From: a virus
Lineage: Duplodnaviria > Heunggongvirae > Uroviricota > Caudoviricetes
DNA: 64,000 nucleotides
IMG/VR virus record: IMGVR_UViG_2609460125_000009
Direction: 5' to 3' (one strand)
Shown here: positions 2,795 to 15,687 of the stretch, piece by piece
How the letters are laid out: every line of letters starts with the position of its first letter
How positions within the stretch are numbered: the first letter of the stretch is position 1
Notes under the pieces: model-generated
Databases searched by the model: none
Told to the model about the DNA's origin: nothing
Seen by the model: only the letters and a program-made list of their open reading frames with translations
Made by a program: the position numbers and the translations under genes

Positions 2795-2849
2795 GTGTAA
2801 TTAGCTTAATCAATCAGTTGATAATGGCGGTCACAATTTGATTCTTTTC

Positions 2850-3720
2850 TATAAGAATCCGTTGATCGCCACTACTCTTCTTCCATACCTGCAATCACAC
2901 CTTTAAATATCAATAAGTTATAGTTGTTTATACAATCAAGAAAACAACTGAATAACAGATCAACGAAACATCAACGCTTTCACCCGATTTGGTCTAAAAA
3001 ATTGACGTATTCACACATCACTTCTTATACCCGTAATTCTACGCAGCAGACAGCGCCACAGCGTCCAATTTTCACCACAGACGACCCAACACACTACCAA
3101 CAAAAACACACGCTCAAAATCGCTCCCGTTGCGTTACACAACCATATAAACAACTTATTTTCAGGCATAACAAAACAACTAAATAACACACATGCCATTC
3201 CCCAAAACAACCAACCTCTTTATGGCAGGCTACCGAAAAGACCCACCTCTTCTCCCCAGGCTACCGGACAACCAACCTAACTTTCACAGGCAATCCGAAA
3301 ACATTCATACGCGCGATACCCACGACACGCCATTACCCAAACAGCGAAGAAACACCAGAATCACTGAAACCCCAACGAAGCCTGTAACCGCAAGGTTTCT
3401 CTCAATCCCAAAAGACACGAAACATAACAATCACGGGAAACGCCATTACCCAATACACGAATAACTACAAAAGCCTTTCACACACTCCAGACAAACAACT
3501 CAAACACAATAACGAAAGGAATCGCCCACCTGCCATTACTCCATACACGGAGAAGAACAATCACCAAAACGACGAGAACACCCCATAGAAGAACCACCGC
3601 AAAACGAACGAAACCACATACACCGACAGAGAGAACAACACACCCAATTCACAAACAGAAATAGTCGCCGCATAGAACGTTCTGGAAGGGGTGAGCATTA
3701 ACGCCTATAGAGAGGTTGAG
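2850..3720 (+). other. strongly A+C-skewed non-coding region with degenerate direct repeats
   Basis: G and T are scarce on the given strand; no ORF >=60 aa on the opposite strand; repeated GCCATTACCCAA and CAGGCTACCG units. Confidence 0.6.
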
Positions 3721-6998: not shown

Positions 6999-7481
6999 AT
7001 GAATTTTATCGCTACTGTAAACGCACCCGCACATGGCAATATCGCTGTAACGTTCTCTGACATTGAAAAACGAGTACTTGGTGCATGGCGCGACAATGAG
7101 ACGGTAGAACTGTCAGCACAAGAAAAATGCATTATTGCACGCGACATCATTGGCAATCGTCGTTACTCGCGGGTATTTGAGAAAGCATATGTGGTAAATT
7201 CTGGATTCGGAACGTTCGTCTTTCCGGTGCGCTCCGGGCGATTCTGCCAGTCCAAGCTGATTGAGTTCGCTACGCAGATTTCTGTCTGGATTAAAACTCA
7301 ATCGTCGTTCAAATTTTCCGACGATGAAGCAGTATCGCAGGGGATGCGGATCGCCAACAATGCGATTAAATGCAAAAACATTACGTATACCGCTGGCGTT
7401 GATACATGGAAACTGTTTTGCGCTAACTTTATGCTGAATGTATACGCAAGCAACCGCATCCACATCCTTGATGGCGTGTAA
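6999..7481 (+). CDS. hypothetical protein
   Basis: 160-aa ORF with AAGGA RBS. Confidence 0.5.
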   Translation: MNFIATVNAPAHGNIAVTFSDIEKRVLGAWRDNETVELSAQEKCIIARDIIGNRRYSRVFEKAYVVNSGFGTFVFPVRSGRFCQSKLIEFATQISVWIKTQSSFKFSDDEAVSQGMRIANNAIKCKNITYTAGVDTWKLFCANFMLNVYASNRIHILDGV

Positions 7482-7494
7482 CTGAGAAGAGGGC

Positions 7495-7620
7495 CAGAAA
7501 CGGCCCTTTCTCTACAGCCACCAGCTGCCGCAGGGAAATTTTCAGAAACGGCGAGGAACGTATTCATGAGCCGACGGGAAACGGCCAGGATTTTTTCGGG
7601 AAACGGCTGCATTCGCCTTT
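7495..7620. repeat. second iteron-like array (AGAAACGGCC / GGGAAACGGC units)
   Basis: Four or more direct repeats of the same core as the 3895-4015 array. Confidence 0.55.
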
Positions 7621-7725
7621 ATATAGAAAAAACATCGGGAAGCTGGTGGAATCCAACCAGCGGTTGTCGGACAGGTGAGCGGGGAAAATCATGATGACTT
7701 TCGTCGCCTGAGACATCCAGATTTC

Positions 7726-7780
7726 TTTCGTAGCGTAATCACATATGTGATTAAGTGGTGTGATTATGTGAAAAATCACG
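7726..7780. promoter_or_regulatory. cluster of perfect palindromes (TAATCACATATGTGATTA; ATTATGTG-N12-CACATAAT)
   Basis: Inverted repeats in a convergent intergenic region. Confidence 0.4.
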
Positions 7781-8071
7781 CGCACATAATACGAGAGCGG
7801 ATACGGAACAAAACAAAATGCCGATCCGCGCCGACAATTAAACGCGGATCACATAGCAAGAATAAAAGCCAATGATTAACCATACACCATAACGCAATAT
7901 AACGCGATTTAAGCGCGTTAATGCGCTAAGTAATGGGTATGTACTGGTAAGGATATAAAAGCGCGTCTATGGCGTTATTTTGGCGCTTATTTTTATGTTG
8001 TTGGTGTGAGTCAAAGACAATAAAAAACGCGCTAATGATGGCGCGTTATGGTGGGAGTATTGGAAACGAAA

Positions 8072-8093
8072 AAAGCGCCCATAGTGGGCGCTC
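8072..8093 (-). terminator. hairpin AGCGCCCA-TAG-TGGGCGCT downstream of the 8098 gene
   Basis: Perfect 8-bp stem; identical copy at 8568. Confidence 0.45.
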
Positions 8094-8097
8094 GATT

Positions 8098-8328
8098 TTA
8101 TTTATGTAAACTGATTTCAAATCCCATTTCTACAAACGCTTTTAACATTAAAAATATATCAGCGTCATTCACGTCTGCTTTTTTTCGCTCCTGGTCGCTC
8201 AATAAGTCAATTTTGCGCGTCGTTTCATCTATAAGCTCGACTGCGCGCCCAGCGTAACCAGCGATCCCAGCGATGCGATTAACATAATATTCGTTATGGA
8301 CGTTAACGCCAGCGATAAGAACAAACAT
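8098..8328 (-). CDS. hypothetical protein (76 aa)
   Basis: ORF in an AT-rich operon. Confidence 0.4.
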   Translation of the reverse strand: MFVLIAGVNVHNEYYVNRIAGIAGYAGRAVELIDETTRKIDLLSDQERKKADVNDADIFLMLKAFVEMGFEISLHK

Positions 8329-8348
8329 GATTAAGCTCCTTAAAAAAA

Positions 8349-8552
8349 TTAAATAGAATTTTGAAGTTTTCCGATTAATGCGCTTAAACGTAAGTATTCA
8401 CGTTTGCGCTTGCAATCTCGCTTGCTGTTAAGCAAATCAGAAAACGTAAAATTTAATTGGTCGCGTTGCGCGATTAAATCATCGATTAATTCCAGTTTAT
8501 AAGCGCGATACTTTGCGCGATATTCCGCGCGGATCTTGTCATAGCTGACCAT
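8349..8552 (-). CDS. hypothetical basic protein (67 aa)
   Basis: Start moved to the internal ATG with an AAAGGAG RBS; the longer track ORF would run through the 8568 hairpin. Confidence 0.4.
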   Translation of the reverse strand: MVSYDKIRAEYRAKYRAYKLELIDDLIAQRDQLNFTFSDLLNSKRDCKRKREYLRLSALIGKLQNSI

Positions 8553-8567
8553 TTTCAAAGCTCCTTT

Positions 8568-8589
8568 AAAGCGCCCATAGTGGGCGCTT
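8568..8589 (-). terminator. hairpin identical to the 8072 copy
   Basis: AAAGCGCCCATAGTGGGCGCTT between the 8601 gene stop and the next RBS. Confidence 0.45.
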
Positions 8590-8600
8590 GATTCCATTAA

Positions 8601-9251
8601 TTACGCTTTGAAAGCATCAGCTAAATAATTGTAGAAATCATTTTTAATGAAGCGATATTGCTGAGTACCAGCTTTCGCACTCCCAGCTCCTTTGACTTTT
8701 TCAACAAGTCCAAGACGTTCGCAAAGATTGATCAACTGGTTGGCTTGAGTATAGCCAGCGTCCAATTTAATTTCACACGCTTTTTTAGCTTCATTCATTA
8801 AATCGAAAACAGCGCCATTGGTGAACGTGTCGATCTCGTCGTTAATCATATCGATTAAAGCGAATACACGAGATCCTGACATATCAGCGATGGAATAAAC
8901 GCATTTACCAGATTTAATTGATTTAACCAGATAAACCAGTTTTTCCAGAGAATAACTATTAGTCATTGCATCACGGAAAAATACTTCTGGCGCTTGTTTG
9001 CTTGCTTTAATCGCATAGTAGAAAACAGAGCATAATTTTTCGTCTTCTACTGCGTTTACGACGTTGTTGATGAAGTAAGCAAGTTTAGTGGTCGCAGCTT
9101 GCATATTTGCTTTGTCTGCTTTAGTGTGCGTACCATTTTTATAATGTTCGTTATATGTTTGAGTTGCCAGATCTGCTTTTTCGCGCAGCTCGTCGGATAC
9201 AATAGATGCAGCTTCAATGATGGACTTTTTAGAAATGATAATGTTAGCCAT
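8601..9251 (-). CDS. hypothetical protein (216 aa), no recognisable motif
   Basis: First gene of an AT-rich operon; long AT-rich promoter region upstream (9252-9500). Confidence 0.5.
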   Translation of the reverse strand: MANIIISKKSIIEAASIVSDELREKADLATQTYNEHYKNGTHTKADKANMQAATTKLAYFINNVVNAVEDEKLCSVFYYAIKASKQAPEVFFRDAMTNSYSLEKLVYLVKSIKSGKCVYSIADMSGSRVFALIDMINDEIDTFTNGAVFDLMNEAKKACEIKLDAGYTQANQLINLCERLGLVEKVKGAGSAKAGTQQYRFIKNDFYNYLADAFKA

Positions 9252-9502
9252 GATAATTTTTCCTTATGTAAATTTAAAATTTATTGTCGTTAGCGTCTTC
9301 GCTTTCGACGAGTTCAATTATCGATACGCGAAAAAAGATTGCAAGTGTTTTTTTTAAATTTTTTGCAGGGATGAAAGTCCTAGAAATAAAAGCGAGATCG
9401 TCGAAGGTGTTCCCTAAATAAATAATCAATTCGGGCTTTTAACCTTATATATATTTAGGTTATTTGATTTGTAGATATAAAGAAGTGATGTGAAAAATAA
9501 TA

Positions 9503-9524
9503 ACCGGACTTAGCCGGTTATTAA
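9503..9524 (-). terminator. hairpin AATAACCGG…CCGGTTATT
   Basis: Stem-loop downstream of the 9535 gene. Confidence 0.45.
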
Positions 9525-9534
9525 CCTTATAGAT

Positions 9535-9843
9535 TTATTGAACAGACTCTACAGCCTTACGATTGGTGTCAAATAGCGCATCAACGAACTGTGCCGATGA
9601 CTCGCTAGATTCGCAATCCAACATTGCCCGTTCTTCATTTGCCACTTTCTTACACAGTTCCACATTCTCACCTATCGCTTTTCCTGCTTTTACGGCTGCC
9701 GAAAATTGATACATGCAAACTGATACATTCTGAGACGTTGAGCACACGTCATTCATCAGCGACTGAATGACAGGCTTATAGTCCATTGCATTTGCCGCAA
9801 CTGAGCAAAGTAAAAATAATGGTGGTAACAATATCGATTTCAT
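9535..9843 (-). CDS. secreted cysteine-rich small protein
   Basis: N-terminal hydrophobic signal-like segment (MKSILLPPLFLLCSVAANA); six Cys residues. Confidence 0.5.
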   Translation of the reverse strand: MKSILLPPLFLLCSVAANAMDYKPVIQSLMNDVCSTSQNVSVCMYQFSAAVKAGKAIGENVELCKKVANEERAMLDCESSESSAQFVDALFDTNRKAVESVQ

Positions 9844-9846
9844 AAC

Positions 9847-10371
9847 TCAAAAAGGCAAAATTCGTTCAACCCAATCGAACAAAACAACTATTTTTCTACC
9901 GTTCTCGACACGTAGTGTAACCTGACAAGCATCTGCGCCTGCTGACACCCCCTCAATTTCACGGCCATCCGCCATGTACACCCTTATAGATTTGTTTGCT
10001 TTGTAGGCTTGGTTGCAAATTGCAAAAAAATCGCGGCGTGATGGCCGATTATCGACATAATCAGGGTGAACTGTTAATCGACCTTTGAAATCGTGAGCGA
10101 TACTGTCAACCACACCTGATTCAATTGTACTAATGCGTTCAAGTGGGAGCCTTATACGATTTTCTTTGTCAAAAGGGGCTGGGCAAAGGTCAACTTTGTT
10201 GCGAGATGGCATGAGGCCATAAACGTACATGCAAAACGCCTGACCATCTTCGAGAGTGACCCTTACAGGAATTTGTTCTCTGCGCCAGAACATCAGTAGT
10301 TTTTCAACGTTAGTGTAATCTCGCGGCAAGAGTTCAGCTTGGATACCGTAGGTAATATCTTTGGTTGTCAT
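9847..10371 (-). CDS. hypothetical protein
   Basis: Start moved to the internal ATG (MTTKDITYG…) to avoid overlap with the upstream lipoprotein gene. Confidence 0.4.
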   Translation of the reverse strand: MTTKDITYGIQAELLPRDYTNVEKLLMFWRREQIPVRVTLEDGQAFCMYVYGLMPSRNKVDLCPAPFDKENRIRLPLERISTIESGVVDSIAHDFKGRLTVHPDYVDNRPSRRDFFAICNQAYKANKSIRVYMADGREIEGVSAGADACQVTLRVENGRKIVVLFDWVERILPF

Positions 10372-10375
10372 GTCA

Positions 10376-10798
10376 TCACAGAGTTGTTGGCAGAATGTCG
10401 ATGTTACCAGAATTGCTGGTGAACACCCTGAACGCTTTTGTGTCTCCATTCTTCAGAGTCGTTTCTCGCTCTTGACGAGCGGGGTTTAGAGCACATAAAC
10501 CTGCACCTTCAAGAGATGCACCCACAATTAATTCTCCGGCATTTAAATGGAAAGTCGCTTTTTCGCCTGTAGCCAGTTTTGCGACAGTTTCGCCATTGAT
10601 GAAAATGGAAGCATCACATCCAGCTCCTACAAAACCTGTGTCTCTCATTACCACCAACGTAGCTGGCGCTGCGCTTTGATACTTGAACACTTTGGCCTGC
10701 GGTGCTGGTTTGGCGTCATGGATTGATATTGGACGTGATTGGCACGCGGTAAGCATCAACACTGGTAACGTTAGTAGAGGGAGAAGCGAGTATTTCAT
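10376..10798 (-). CDS. putative lipoprotein
   Basis: Signal peptide with lipobox (…VLMLTAC); start at MKYSLL. Confidence 0.5.
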   Translation of the reverse strand: MKYSLLPLLTLPVLMLTACQSRPISIHDAKPAPQAKVFKYQSAAPATLVVMRDTGFVGAGCDASIFINGETVAKLATGEKATFHLNAGELIVGASLEGAGLCALNPARQERETTLKNGDTKAFRVFTSNSGNIDILPTTL

Positions 10799-10866: not shown

Positions 10867-11145
10867 TTATTTTAATCTGCTTAATAGCGTTTCGAGATCT
10901 TCCTTTGTCATATTAGAGTTCTCATAGATACGCATGATTTTCTCACGAGTCTTAGCGGAAGCCCCGACAGAAGATATAACCTTGTCAAAGTCGGCCATTG
11001 TCAATTGTTCCAGAATGGTATTAATGACTTCAGCCTTAGACATTTTGATATTTTTTTCTTTTAGTTTCACTTGAAACTTTCCAAGTTTGTCATTGGCCTT
11101 ATCAGACAATGCTACCTGACAGTAAGTTGTTTTCTTTTCACTCAT
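10867..11145 (-). CDS. hypothetical small protein (92 aa)
   Basis: ORF immediately downstream of the helicase gene. Confidence 0.4.
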   Translation of the reverse strand: MSEKKTTYCQVALSDKANDKLGKFQVKLKEKNIKMSKAEVINTILEQLTMADFDKVISSVGASAKTREKIMRIYENSNMTKEDLETLLSRLK

Positions 11146-12752: not shown

Positions 12753-12772
12753 ATAAGTAAGTGATTACTTAG
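12753..12772. promoter_or_regulatory. motif family 2 palindrome ATAAGTAAGTGATTACTTAG in a divergent promoter region
   Basis: Inverted repeat between the helicase operon (-) and the ParB-like operon (+). Confidence 0.45.
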
Positions 12773-12789
12773 TGGATTGTAGCAATAAA

Positions 12790-13470
12790 ATGGATGTAAA
12801 AATCACGATTTTGCAGGTTGATGTTGCCAACCTTCGCCCGAATACCTGGAACACCAATTCGGTTGGTGCGCAGAATTTTGAAAAACTGAAAGGTTCTATC
12901 GAAAAATTGGGCTTTTTTAAGCCAATTTTGGCTCGTGAACTTGAAGATGGATTTTTTGAAATCCTCGGCGGCGAACATCGCTGGCGTGCTGCTATTGAGC
13001 AAGGAATTTCAACGGTTCCGGTGCTTTCTGTGGGCAAAATTAGCGATGTCGTAGCTAAACAGATGTCACTGGTGGACAACGAGCGATACGGTGAAGACGA
13101 CCAAATCGCATTGCAACGCTTCATTGAAGAAATTCAGTCAGAACTTGACTATCAACTGTCTGAAATCGCCCCGTATGACGACGAAATCTCGATGGTTTTA
13201 GCAAAAGAGGCGGCAATCGACCTTGAAGCACTGGAGGCGTTGTCTCGTGGTAGTGATGAGCCTGTCGATACCGACAAACGAGAGAAAACCGAACGTGTGG
13301 GTGCGGAACATCAGACCATGCGCTTCAAAGTAACTTTCGATGCGTCAGATCGTGTTGCAGAAACCATAAAAAACATCATCAAAGAGCAGGCTATTAACAC
13401 CGGTAATGAAATGGAGAACGCTGGTGAGGCTCTGGTGTGGCTGGTCGACTACTACAAGGAGCGTATGTAA
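12790..13470 (+). CDS. ParB/Srx-fold nuclease-like domain protein 1
   Basis: ParB N-terminal-like motif (…FEILGGEHRWRAA…); start could be 12772. Confidence 0.6.
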   Translation: MDVKITILQVDVANLRPNTWNTNSVGAQNFEKLKGSIEKLGFFKPILARELEDGFFEILGGEHRWRAAIEQGISTVPVLSVGKISDVVAKQMSLVDNERYGEDDQIALQRFIEEIQSELDYQLSEIAPYDDEISMVLAKEAAIDLEALEALSRGSDEPVDTDKREKTERVGAEHQTMRFKVTFDASDRVAETIKNIIKEQAINTGNEMENAGEALVWLVDYYKERM

Positions 13471-14138
13471 TGACCAAAAAGTTTGAAATCGTATATCGCG
13501 ACCCGGCAGATCTTATTCCCTATGAGATGAATGCCAAAAAGCATGATGAACAGCAGATCCGAGATCTGGCCGCAGCCATTAAAAAGCGCGGATTTGACCA
13601 GCCAATTACGGTCGATAAGAACGACGTAATTATTACTGGCCACGGCCGCCGTGAGGCTGCAATTTTTGCTGGACTTGAGCGCGTACCGGTTATTGTTCGC
13701 GATGATCTCAGTGATGACGAGGTTCGTGCGAAGCGCCTTGAAGATAACCGACTTGCCAGCATTGATTACGATGCAATTAAGCTACAGAAAGAGCTTGAGT
13801 CGCTTGTTCTGGACGATATCGAGGTTTTCGGCTTTGAAGAGCGTGAGTTGAATGTTCTCGTTGGCAGCATGACAGAAGAAATGGACACCGACTCGCTAGT
13901 TATCGATCTTGGCGAAGAAACTAAACGACAGAAGGATGAACACACCGAGATCAGTCGTGAAGTTGCAGCGGAAGAAGTACGTGTTGTCGACGTATTGGGC
14001 TTTAAAACGCTTCCTGCTGGCTCTGCCATTGTTGTTGGTGATTTGCTTGCCCACATGGAAGAAATGACGGGAGAAAGCGGGGTAGACGCATTTGTGGCAT
14101 ATGCGGAGAAGATCTCTTCCGGGGAGATGGCTGCATGA
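13470..14138 (+). CDS. ParB/Srx-fold nuclease-like domain protein 2
   Basis: ParB-like motif (…VIITGHGRREAA…); start overlaps the upstream stop (TAATG). Confidence 0.6.
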   Translation: MTKKFEIVYRDPADLIPYEMNAKKHDEQQIRDLAAAIKKRGFDQPITVDKNDVIITGHGRREAAIFAGLERVPVIVRDDLSDDEVRAKRLEDNRLASIDYDAIKLQKELESLVLDDIEVFGFEERELNVLVGSMTEEMDTDSLVIDLGEETKRQKDEHTEISREVAAEEVRVVDVLGFKTLPAGSAIVVGDLLAHMEEMTGESGVDAFVAYAEKISSGEMAA

Positions 14139-14800
14139 GCAAATACATCATCAACGTATCGTTTCAGACTCGCGTAAATAAAACCACGCGCACGTTGGAA
14201 ATCGCTGAGTCGTTCGGGCTTGGCCTGGACGAAAAAGAGTGGACGCTTTACGACAATCTGGAGCTGGAAGTGAAGCAGGGCGATGTGGTGTACATCACCG
14301 GCCAATCCGGTTCCGGCAAATCCGTTGTGCTGCGCGAGTTGCAACGACAGATGAAGGATGAAGGGCTGTCTGTAGCCTCCATCGATGATTTTACCTTCGA
14401 TAATGAGGTTAACGTCATCGATCAGTTGGGCAAAACGACCAGCGATGCGCTTGGGTTGTTATCTATGGCTGGTCTGAACGATGCATATCTGTTTGTTCGC
14501 AAGCCTTCTGAAATGTCAGACGGTCAGAAATATCGTCTCAAGATTGCCAAATTGATTGAGTCAGGCGCTAAAGTGTGGGCTGCTGACGAGTTCGGTGCTG
14601 TTCTAGACCGTGTAACCGCTCAGGTTGTGGCATCTAACCTCCAGCGTGCCGCTCGAAAGGTTGGTGCGACGGTAATGGTGGCGACGACTCACGAAGACCT
14701 GAAGAACGCGCTGCGCCCGGATATGCAGATCACCAAGCACTACAAAGAACGCGTGAAGGTGGAATATCACAATGGTAGTCATGATGAGGTTCATTTATGA
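14135..14800 (+). CDS. stand-alone ABC-type ATPase domain protein
   Basis: Walker A GQSGSGKS, ABC-signature-like MSDGQKYRL, Walker B AADEFG; start overlaps the upstream stop. Confidence 0.6.
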   Translation: MSKYIINVSFQTRVNKTTRTLEIAESFGLGLDEKEWTLYDNLELEVKQGDVVYITGQSGSGKSVVLRELQRQMKDEGLSVASIDDFTFDNEVNVIDQLGKTTSDALGLLSMAGLNDAYLFVRKPSEMSDGQKYRLKIAKLIESGAKVWAADEFGAVLDRVTAQVVASNLQRAARKVGATVMVATTHEDLKNALRPDMQITKHYKERVKVEYHNGSHDEVHL

Positions 14801-15687
14801 CGGACATCATCATTAAACGCTACCGCCCTGAAGAGTTTCCGCGTCATCTGGACTTTCTGGAGCGAATGACTGTCACAAAGGGAACTGTAGAGGACTGGCA
14901 CGCTCTTAAGTCGCTTCACTACAAAACAGACGGCAAACCTTTCGCGCCAACTTACTATCGCTGCGAACTTGATGACCGTCTGGTGGGCGTCGTGGTTATG
15001 GCTTACCCGAAACTACTGCTGGCACCTCGCCACCGCATGTTTCCTAAGTTGAAACCAACCACTAATACCACCGTGGCTAACCAGTACTGGGGTCGGTACG
15101 TGAATAACAACTTTGCGGTGATCAGTCGCTCAGTTGTGGATACTCAGTATCGTGGCGTAGGCGTCTCTTATCGAATGATTAACCTGGTTAGCAGGATGCA
15201 TGACCGGCCAATCATTGAGATCCAGTCCTCGATGAGCAAATACAATCCCTTCGCCATGAAAGCAGGGTTTAAGTTCATCCGCCCTGAGCGACCGAAGAGC
15301 TATGAAAGTGCACTGCGTGTATTCCAGCGCCATTTCCGTTCCGACCCGGGTGATAACGAGGCGATCGTCAAAGAGTTGTTCGCAATGAGCGAGTCTCGTC
15401 GTCGCCGTGCACTGCGTGATCTGGTGGCGGACTACCACAAGAACAGTTCCCTGGCAAAAGCTGGGCGGAATCGTGGCACGACGATTCAGGACATTGCCGA
15501 CAGTCTGGTGGACGAGGCCAGCATTGTGAAGCTGCTCAAGGACATTCACAACCTGAGCTTTACGTCTCCGTTGTATGGTGTGTACCGAAACCCTGACTTT
15601 GGCCGTCGACTGCCTGACACGCTGCCACTGCTGGCATTCGACAAACAACCTTTGGATAAACCGTTAGAAATTGCTTTACCGGCATAA
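14797..15687 (+). CDS. hypothetical protein with GNAT-like acyl-CoA binding motif
   Basis: Q-x-x-G-x-G motif (VVDTQYRGVGVSYRMINLV) after a hydrophobic strand; translationally coupled to the ATPase gene. Confidence 0.45.
   Translation: MTDIIIKRYRPEEFPRHLDFLERMTVTKGTVEDWHALKSLHYKTDGKPFAPTYYRCELDDRLVGVVVMAYPKLLLAPRHRMFPKLKPTTNTTVANQYWGRYVNNNFAVISRSVVDTQYRGVGVSYRMINLVSRMHDRPIIEIQSSMSKYNPFAMKAGFKFIRPERPKSYESALRVFQRHFRSDPGDNEAIVKELFAMSESRRRRALRDLVADYHKNSSLAKAGRNRGTTIQDIADSLVDEASIVKLLKDIHNLSFTSPLYGVYRNPDFGRRLPDTLPLLAFDKQPLDKPLEIALPA

Follow-up and report, generated by a model that had tools for sequence, protein, structure and literature searches.

An AT-rich three-gene operon of SSU5-type phage-plasmids with a conserved gene for a predicted winged-helix protein and a variable slot for small genes

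The operon and its control region

The virus record IMGVR_UViG_2609460125_000009 (Caudoviricetes), of which a stretch of 64,000 nucleotides (nt) was analysed (the window), contains at 8067-9530 an operon of three minus-strand genes encoding proteins of 216, 67 and 76 amino acids (aa). An initial annotation, made from the letters of the DNA, had read this operon as a candidate moron locus, that is, as horizontally acquired accessory genes with defence, anti-defence or exclusion functions. The 2-kb stretch around the locus shares 99% DNA identity with 110-kb plasmids of E. coli and E. albertii; the figure is 97% for "Escherichia phage CMS-2020a", 92% for phage Cyrano (pLF82) and 83% for Salmonella phage SSU5. 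DNA-level matches were found in 769 plasmid records (Klebsiella, Escherichia, Enterobacter, Yersinia pMT1, Salmonella and others). Given the identities to the 110-kb plasmids, Cyrano and SSU5, the window can be assigned by sequence to an SSU5-type phage-plasmid, the group that includes SSU5, Cyrano/pLF82 and the Yersinia pestis plasmid pMT1.

The 216-aa gene (8601-9251) belongs to phrog_1513 and the 76-aa gene (8098-8328) to phrog_1585, both families of unknown function. Between them lies the 67-aa gene (8349-8552, phrog_6145), which encodes a basic, all-helical, coiled-coil-like protein. In agreement with the initial annotation, which had recognised no motif in the proteins, searches of Pfam, NCBIfam, PADLOC and PHROGs with all three returned function-unknown PHROGs as the sole family matches; an Rfam search over 7000-10600 gave noise only. 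The open reading frame (ORF) of the 67-aa gene mechanically extends to 82 aa, and the shorter start is favoured by a ribosome-binding site (RBS), AAGGAG, at 8566-8561 and by the Prokaryotic Genome Annotation Pipeline (PGAP) annotation of near-identical plasmids. Comparison of non-synonymous with synonymous divergence gave ratios (dN/dS) of 0.08-0.10 (216-aa gene), 0.08 (67-aa gene) and 0.13-0.36 (76-aa gene). Because these ratios are low, all three ORFs can be taken, on the evidence of substitution patterns, as real genes evolving as proteins.

The interval 8067-9530 has a guanine plus cytosine (GC) content of 37.4%, compared with 46.5% for the window. Among sliding windows of 1,464 bp (mean 46.4%, standard deviation 2.9%, minimum 37.1%), the operon lies at the 0.08th percentile, approximately three standard deviations below the mean, and all such windows with less than 40% GC overlap it. 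The GC content at third codon positions of the 216-aa gene (0.35) is the lowest of 49 genes. The intergenic region ahead of the operon (9252-9534, 283 bp) has a GC content of 30.4% and contains a sigma-70-like site. The three genes, the AT-rich composition and the long AT-rich promoter region that the initial annotation had noticed all hold up on calculation.

The control region of the operon begins with the intrinsic terminator of the upstream gene (9498-9523, minus strand; terminator scan; fold -12.6 kcal/mol, z -4.1), which is conserved in relatives. Here it closes a 102-aa gene, while in SSU5 and pMT1 it closes an FljA-like gene. Its position fits a role in insulating the operon from upstream transcription. 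Together with a promoter (9344-9317) and a terminator at the other end (8093-8063), both described below, this element (9523-9498) provides the self-contained transcription signals that had been proposed for the locus.

Downstream of this terminator, an alignment of the upstream regions of nine lineages, with 216-aa proteins down to roughly 30-40% identity, identified three short boxes on the minus strand: box A (ATATATAAGG, 9452-9443), box B (TTTAGGGAACACCTTC, 9418-9403) and box C (TTTCTAGGACTTT, 9386-9374). Their cross-lineage forms are (T)ATATAAGG, TTTAGGNAACACCTTC and TTTCTARGACTTT, respectively. The spacing is essentially invariant, with 34 nt between A and B (35 in Pectobacterium) and 32 nt between B and C, and the linkers are variable; box B was not found in L105, one of the nine lineages. 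The boxes are under selection, being conserved beside a gene whose synonymous sites have reached saturation (synonymous divergence, dS, of at least 1). Boxes B and C have no second occurrence in the whole 110-kb element, and box A is too short to be specific. Two explanations of the boxes were ruled out. A structured RNA is contradicted by a consensus fold energy of -0.13 kcal/mol and by the lack of covariation, and a motif used across the genome, as in a late-promoter class or a regulon, by the confinement of boxes B and C, as well as of the palindrome of the operon's hairpins, to this locus in the 110-kb element. Candidate binders of the boxes are the 216-aa protein, a lysogen-expressed 92-aa ribbon-helix-helix-like neighbour and host nucleoid proteins.

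An A-tract and a sigma-70-type promoter follow at 9317-9352 (minus strand; promoter scan), with the -35 element TTGCAA (9344-9339), a 16-nt spacer and the -10 element GATAAT (9322-9317). Taken alone, this combination is not above chance in such AT-rich DNA, but most of the diverse relatives have kept both its -35 and its -10 element. The pattern CTTG...ATAAT with an upstream A-run was matched in the window, SSU5, JZ38 and Kp2511, and comparable elements were seen by eye in more distant lineages, the variants being CTTGCA or CTTGAT at -35 and GATAAT, CATAAT or TATTAT at -10. The leader of approximately 59 nt (9252-9311, minus strand), whose start was deduced from the -10 element, carries an RBS, AAGGA (9265-9261), and a 5'-proximal stem-loop (9309-9286; GUCG..AGCG-AAGA-CGCU..CGAC; -9.8 kcal/mol, z -2.7). 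The leader sequence TCGAAAGCGAACACGCTAACGA is conserved, and between the window and SSU5 a base pair of the stem-loop is swapped in a compensatory way (G-C/A-U). Other clades, for example L104, have a different 5' hairpin in the same place of the leader, and several lineages have an extra small hairpin, differing in sequence, just 5' of the RBS. The spacer was checked by eye, with no formal test, for sites of LexA, sigma-54, sigma-28 and integration host factor (IHF), for DnaA-boxes and for 13-mers, and no match conserved across lineages was seen.

The 216-aa gene in relatives

A tblastn search with the 216-aa protein identified 815 plasmids in PLSDB, nearly all of approximately 100-120 kb, while the SSU5-type large terminase (at least 80% identity) is found in 800 PLSDB records. 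The counts for the two genes (216-aa gene/terminase) agree genus by genus: Klebsiella 346/345, Escherichia 217/208, Enterobacter 91/93, Yersinia 62/62, Salmonella 49/50, Citrobacter 25/25 and Cronobacter 10/10. In Acinetobacter elements with a 60%-identical terminase, the same search did not find the 216-aa gene. The family comprises 102 clusters, essentially all from Enterobacterales and from elements of approximately 100 kb. An exhaustive profile search of 1.84 billion representative proteins gave 23 matches, all to the same narrow family, and no link to any characterised family. A scan of genome contigs also found members in Xenorhabdus and Morganella on elements of approximately 100 kb; these, along with Pectobacterium contigs of about 100 kb and IMG/VR contigs of like size, contain the most distant members.

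The gene order around the 216-aa gene was inspected in SSU5, Cyrano, pMT1, two Klebsiella lineages, Cronobacter, Pectobacterium and the L104 clade. It is constant: a helicase gene and, further along, the FljA-like gene are followed by a spacer of approximately 300-400 bp, the 216-aa gene and a convergent 160-aa gene, with an extra gene in some relatives, such as the 102-aa gene of the window. This synteny holds down to 39% protein identity in Pectobacterium (tblastn) and approximately 33% in the L104 clade. For the 216-aa gene, dS is around 1 or more, which means that the synonymous sites are saturated, and an alignment of 18 diverse protein sequences has 71 invariant columns. Across 79 loci, including lineages at 49-62% protein identity, homologues of the gene have a GC content of 39.8% compared with 46.3% for their surroundings. 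Since the AT-richness is common to all lineages down to 49% protein identity, it would be an ancestral, maintained property of the 216-aa gene and no mark of recent transfer. Sequence comparison thus identifies the 216-aa gene as a core, strongly constrained gene of SSU5-type phage-plasmids. The initial annotation had taken the compositional contrast as a signature of horizontally acquired accessory cargo; for this gene the claim is contradicted by the 815 and 800 records, by the fixed synteny and by the ancestral AT-richness. It had said that its proposal would be overturned by conservation in all relatives combined with an assignable housekeeping phage role; the first half of this, conservation, was found for the 216-aa gene, and no such role could be assigned.

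The structure of the 216-aa protein was modelled with AlphaFold2 from an 18-sequence alignment, with a predicted local distance difference test score (pLDDT) of 82 and a predicted template modelling score (pTM) of 0.72. The model has an N-terminal helical domain (approximately residues 8-114) and a C-terminal winged helix (approximately residues 126-216). The former consists of a long helical hairpin (8-38, 44-69) and three more helices up to residue 114. In the latter (126-215), helices (H) and strands (S) are arranged as H-S-H-H-S-wing-S and are followed by a last helix, in accordance with the winged-helix topology H1-S1-H2-H3-S2-wing-S3. The best conserved segments of the protein are residues 76-112 (..NSYSLEKLVYL..) and the predicted recognition helix (DxGYTQxNQLIxLxERLG). 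From the predicted C-terminal winged helix, and from the fold only, we infer that the 216-aa protein binds DNA; the N-terminal part of the model is probably a new, oligomerisation domain.

Searches of Pfam and NCBIfam with this protein (E<=1) gave noise only, with no membership of a curated winged helix-turn-helix (wHTH) family, and a PDB sequence search with the family profile returned nothing at E<=10. The best match in Foldseek, a weak one, was to the lid and winged helix of Orc1/Cdc6 (E 0.033). The remote-homology search and structure prediction suggested in the initial annotation thus yielded a fold and no sequence family. The canonical winged-helix topology is common to the model and to wHTH proteins of the MarR, ArsR-SmtB, PadR and TubR types. 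Unlike these, the 216-aa protein has no Pfam or NCBIfam membership, its winged helix lies C-terminal to a 115-residue helical domain with no structural match, and no ligand-sensing or metal site is evident.

Expression of the homologous operon can be followed in Cyrano, for which RNA sequencing of the host E. coli LF82 carrying the element has been published (Misson et al., PMC9928086, S1 Table). CYRAN_113 encodes a protein with 97.5% identity to that of 216 aa, and CYRAN_112 is the homologue of the 76-aa gene. In overnight LB cultures, CYRAN_113 reached 5.9 and CYRAN_112 5.0 normalised units, where the floor is 4.99 and the prophage median 9.8 (PMC9928086). The authors' cut-off for morons was 49 units, and neither gene is on their list of Cyrano morons (PMC9928086). 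On a log2 scale, CYRAN_113 stands at 2.3-2.8 in LB and at 3.4-3.9 after 1 h and 5.5-5.7 after 6 h in macrophages; the major capsid protein gene runs parallel to it, from 3.0 to 7.5, and small terminase transcripts rise too (PMC9928086). CYRAN_113 thus exceeds 3.9 only at 6 h in macrophages, where the capsid and small terminase transcripts also climb. For the FljA-like gene CYRAN_114, the level is 18 units, with a rise to about 2^8 (PMC9928086). Across the intervening terminator the level drops from 18 units to the 5.9 of CYRAN_113, which fits a functional insulator and a silent promoter. The homologue of the operon is off in the Cyrano lysogen. Expression from a repressed prophage, which a moron should show, is therefore contradicted in Cyrano, with the homologues at the detection floor and below the prophage median.

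The duplicated hairpin and the gene slot

The two identical hairpins by which the initial annotation had seen the operon punctuated are borne out by an exact repeat: a 19-nt palindrome, AGCGCCCACTATGGGCGCT, has exactly two copies in the window (8570-8588 and 8074-8092, minus strand), compared with none expected from shuffled sequences. The similarity of the copies reaches 34 nt at 88% identity, and the predicted RNA stems have energies of -15.1 and -15.5 kcal/mol. The internal hairpin (8570-8588, minus strand) lies 12 nt past the stop codon of the 216-aa gene and is followed by UUU and by AAAGGAG, the RBS of the 67-aa gene; it was not called a terminator by the scan. The terminal hairpin (8063-8093, minus strand), with a 9-bp stem and the U-tract tail UUUUUUCGUUUCC, is the intrinsic terminator of the operon (terminator scan; -15.5 kcal/mol, z -4.1). 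Of the two, 8093-8063 has both the GC-rich stem and the U-tract of an intrinsic terminator, and 8588-8570 has lost the U-tract. Approximately 30 nt further downstream, a second terminator-like hairpin (8016-8047, minus strand; terminator scan) faces the convergent plus-strand genes and is predicted to act as a back-up terminator.

A scan of IMG/VR for the exact 19-mer found 94 stretches, giving 87 unique loci, and all but two of the stretches adjoin a homologue of the 216-aa gene. The first hairpin copy starts 13-23 nt past that gene in 73 of the 87 loci. Terminal copies nearly always continue with T4-6 and CGTTTC, and internal copies with a gene behind them show 0-3 T and then AAGGAG or TAAGGA. 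Some lineages have two to three tandem hairpins in units of 44-47 nt. The 19-nt sequence is identical across lineages in which synonymous divergence is saturated. The L104 clade keeps the boxes but has an unrelated terminator hairpin. In two IMG/VR contigs (L011, 12915-12933; L098, 1472-1490), the identical 19-nt hairpin with a T-tract ends an unrelated gene (C-terminus ...SSAGTYKVS), and no 216-aa homologue was detected at either locus. Its presence at an unrelated gene suggests that the terminator sequence is shared or exchanged beyond the operon. The idea that the hairpin is a specific operator tied to the 216-aa protein is weakened by these two contigs and by the different terminator of L104. 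Judged from its distribution, the hairpin would be a terminator plus a recombination or duplication boundary, and no specific operator. The internal copy without its U-tract may act as a leaky terminator or as a 3' stabiliser.

Tandem or duplicated intrinsic terminators and intercistronic stem-loops are known to set differential expression within operons. The hairpins described here resemble these in their GC-rich stems of 8-9 bp and approximately -15 kcal/mol, in the U-tract of the terminal copy and in the position of the U-tract-less internal copy directly before an RBS. Unlike them, they bracket a slot of varying gene content and so mark a recombination or duplication boundary.

This slot holds between zero and two small genes, and its content varies among relatives. 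The 79 slot loci compared are a biased sample, as they were found via the hairpin itself; after the 216-aa gene, 10 of them have the hairpin only, approximately 20 the 67-aa gene only, approximately 14 the 76-aa gene only and approximately 15 both genes, as in the window. Other loci have a divergent 76' allele, two 76-type genes or tandem hairpins. The 76' allele is 36-50% identical to the 76-aa type and is found on backbones with a 99%-identical 216-aa gene. The 76-aa family is confined to SSU5-type contigs. Neither small gene has a promoter of its own. The proteins have no Pfam match, and PDB searches with single sequences gave nothing or weak coiled-coil noise. In PADLOC-DB v2 there was no match for the 216- and 76-aa proteins and a single noise-level match (E 0.027) for the 67-aa protein; the defence function hinted at in the initial annotation is thus left with no credible PADLOC match for any of the three.

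The 67-aa family has been labelled 'MIT/CorA metal transporter', a label that originates in the SSU5 record and by which the family entered the PHROGs class 'moron, auxiliary metabolic gene and host takeover'. Transporters of the CorA/MIT type have approximately 300 aa, two C-terminal transmembrane helices and a GMN motif. The label is an annotation error, since the protein has 67 aa, is highly charged and has no hydrophobic segment, no GMN motif and no Pfam CorA match.

The sporadic, allele-swapping distribution of the 67- and 76-aa genes is as would be expected of accessory, possibly counter-defence, genes. The comparison with related elements proposed in the initial annotation therefore divides the operon. 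The 216-aa gene is constant and does not behave as accessory cargo; the 67- and 76-aa genes are variable and do, being absent, single, double or replaced by another allele on near-identical backbones.

Proposed role, neighbourhood and significance

We consider it probable that the operon is a core unit, insulated and kept silent in the Cyrano lysogen, which encodes a DNA-binding regulator of the lytic programme and ends in a terminator-bounded slot for small cargo genes. The unit consists, in order, of the upstream terminator, the three-box module, the A-tract with the sigma-70 promoter, the leader with its 5' stem-loop, the 216-aa gene, the terminator stem without a U-tract, zero to two small cargo genes and the same stem with a U-tract. 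The 216-aa protein would bind specific DNA sequences as part of the lytic programme, most likely as a transcription regulator acting at, or controlled via, the box module upstream of its own gene. Boxes A-C (9452-9374) and the 19-bp palindrome are candidates for its binding sites. The AT-rich composition may help to silence the unit in lysogeny, for example through H-NS. The internal hairpin would pass a fraction of transcripts into the cargo genes, and the slot may have arisen by duplication of the terminator and recombination at it.

Several points weigh against this proposal. The expression data come from one relative and from bulk cultures with few induced cells. DNA binding by the 216-aa protein is a prediction from a modelled fold, the input alignment was shallow (18 sequences), and the N-terminal domain had no structural analogue in the fold comparison. 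In addition, winged helices also serve protein-protein contacts, and structural matches of the cullin and MukF/MukE types were seen. Boxes A, B and C do not repeat a single motif, and box C stands at a variable 41-57 nt from the -35 element, a poor fit to a simple activator site. Given that the boxes and the palindrome are absent elsewhere in the 110-kb element, no regulon can be named. Finally, silencing by H-NS and read-through of the internal hairpin are inferences.

Phage morons, as defined for HK97- and lambda-like phages, are promoter-gene-terminator inserts that are expressed from the prophage. The operon resembles them in being compositionally deviant, insulated, equipped with its own promoter and terminator and placed between differently oriented gene blocks. 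A horizontally acquired moron operon for defence, anti-defence or exclusion would explain the composition, which truly deviates, and the transcription signals. In a weaker form, the idea would cover the 67- and 76-aa genes only, as small lytic-phase accessory proteins riding on the 216-aa transcript. The variable presence of these genes and their 36-50%-identical alleles on backbones with 99%-identical 216-aa genes form a pattern that counter-defence hot-spots typically show, and PHROGs places the 67-aa family in its moron category, though only via the mis-annotation. However, the 216-aa gene is core rather than sporadic, syntenic, ancestrally AT-rich and silent in the Cyrano lysogen, where the operon stays below the prophage median, and for this gene the moron explanation is rejected. 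A sporadic distribution is shown by the 67- and 76-aa genes alone, which are promoterless, have no credible PADLOC match and gave no homology or structural clue to function in the searches run. Overall, we regard a moron operon as unlikely, though for the two small genes the idea deserves to be kept in mind.

Distinctly less is to be expected of the idea that the AT-rich spacer with its phased boxes is a lytic origin, used after induction, and the 216-aa protein its origin-binding protein. As in initiator-plus-origin modules (plasmid Rep and iterons; lambda O and ori), a winged-helix gene stands beside a unique AT-rich region with phased sites: the region has 30% GC, the boxes are approximately three helical turns apart (34 and 32 nt), and the best, weak, Foldseek match is to an Orc1/Cdc6 lid and winged helix (E 0.033). 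The gene also shares its leftward block with a DEAD/DEAH (UvsW-like) helicase, and the operon is silent in lysogeny in Cyrano. Unlike in such modules, the three sites differ in sequence and are thus not iterons, there is no match to a Rep, O or other initiator family, and inspection by eye gave no DnaA-box or 13-mer pattern. Moreover, a separate replicon with a RepB-family initiator elsewhere on the element is already assigned to plasmid replication, and the conserved sigma-70 promoter and leader alone explain the retention of the spacer. A function in plasmid maintenance, with the 216-aa protein as a TubR- or ParR-like centromere binder on the upstream repeats or as another lysogeny-phase regulator, is highly improbable. 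Maintenance functions must be expressed in the lysogen, where the operon is at the detection floor, and the operon has no partner NTPase (TubZ, ParM or ParA); retention in the pMT1 lineage is not informative, as this lineage is too young.

The operon is part of a leftward gene block that starts with the DEAD/DEAH (UvsW-like) helicase (12707-11148, minus strand). Next come a minus-strand 92-aa gene (10867-11145; ribbon-helix-helix-like by eye, no Pfam match), a minus-strand lipoprotein gene located between it and the FljA-like gene, the FljA-like gene itself (10449/10371-9847, minus strand; Pfam Flag1_repress, E 1.7e-82, and a weak Hfq-like match) and the 102-aa gene (9843-9535, minus strand; phrog_9536), which encodes a signal peptide and several cysteines. 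With 114 units, the Cyrano homologue of the 92-aa protein, CYRAN_117, is one of the most strongly expressed genes in the lysogen and hence a candidate for a repressor of the lysogeny phase. The 102-aa gene is present in some lineages, inserted between the FljA-like gene and the terminator of the latter, while SSU5, pMT1 and Cyrano lack it; this sporadic gene matches the idea of an accessory insert better than the three-gene operon does. The FljA-like gene is present on 831 plasmids, with a genus spread like that of the 216-aa gene. In most relatives it lies directly upstream of the control region of the 216-aa gene, with an extra gene between them in some. Possible targets of its product are host flagellin mRNA or the 216-aa leader.

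It is tempting to speculate that the FljA-like gene, the three-box module with the structured leader and the 216-aa protein together form the lytic control point (a switch, a middle or late activator, or a lytic origin) of the SSU5/pHCM2/pMT1 family. The lysogen-expressed FljA-like protein would then hold the 216-aa mRNA off via the leader hairpins, and the 216-aa protein, its N-terminal domain having a fold not seen before, would define a new family of regulators in phages. Taken as a whole, this scenario is rather unlikely.

On its opposite flank, the operon faces convergent plus-strand genes, the last of which, the 160-aa gene, ends at 7481. The gene-free gap of approximately 600 nt between this gene and the operon terminator (7482-8097) contains more terminator-like hairpins (8047-8026 and 7851-7822, minus strand; 7971-7987, plus strand), and a gap of 600-900 nt downstream of the operon is kept in all relatives. 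Divergent from the helicase and upstream of the terminase genes, a conserved plus-strand cluster (12772-15687) encodes two ParB_N/Srx-domain proteins, an ABC-type ATPase and a 296-aa protein. Elsewhere in the window, a gene-free gap (approximately 2800-3715) includes approximately 650 nt of non-coding DNA (3030-3680, plus strand) in which A and C are extremely frequent and G and T scarce (GC skew -0.49, AT skew +0.53). Three imperfect tandem units of 31 nt lie in it at 3202-3293, and the repeat ACGCCATTACCCAA occurs at 3324 and 3437, 113 nt apart; the stretch gave no Rfam match and no array in Tandem Repeats Finder (TRF). The corresponding 1.5 kb of pEA26_1 is likewise unannotated.

The 216-aa family is already present in databases as "hypothetical", and its fold class, the promoter-terminator logic and variable phage slots are all familiar. 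No published description was found of the family as a core, lysogeny-silent winged-helix gene, of its rigid three-box region or of the duplicated terminator framing the slot, and no published account was found of lytic-programme control in SSU5-type phage-plasmids. A preprint on phage-plasmid heteroresistance was set aside, as it concerns an unrelated family.

In Klebsiella, E. coli, Enterobacter and Salmonella, phage-plasmids of the SSU5 type rank with the most common large plasmids, and some carry resistance genes. The group is medically relevant, includes Y. pestis pMT1 and has at least 800 representatives in PLSDB. The operon illustrates that AT-richness together with a promoter and a terminator of its own is insufficient to make a moron, while the hairpin-bounded slot offers a defined place in which to seek small accessory, possibly counter-defence, proteins. 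The 216-aa gene, being ubiquitous in the group, silent in lysogeny and provided with a DNA-binding-type fold and a rigid, conserved control region, is a concrete candidate for the lytic control circuit, and it is possible that this module and the adjacent FljA-like gene form part of such a circuit in the SSU5 group.

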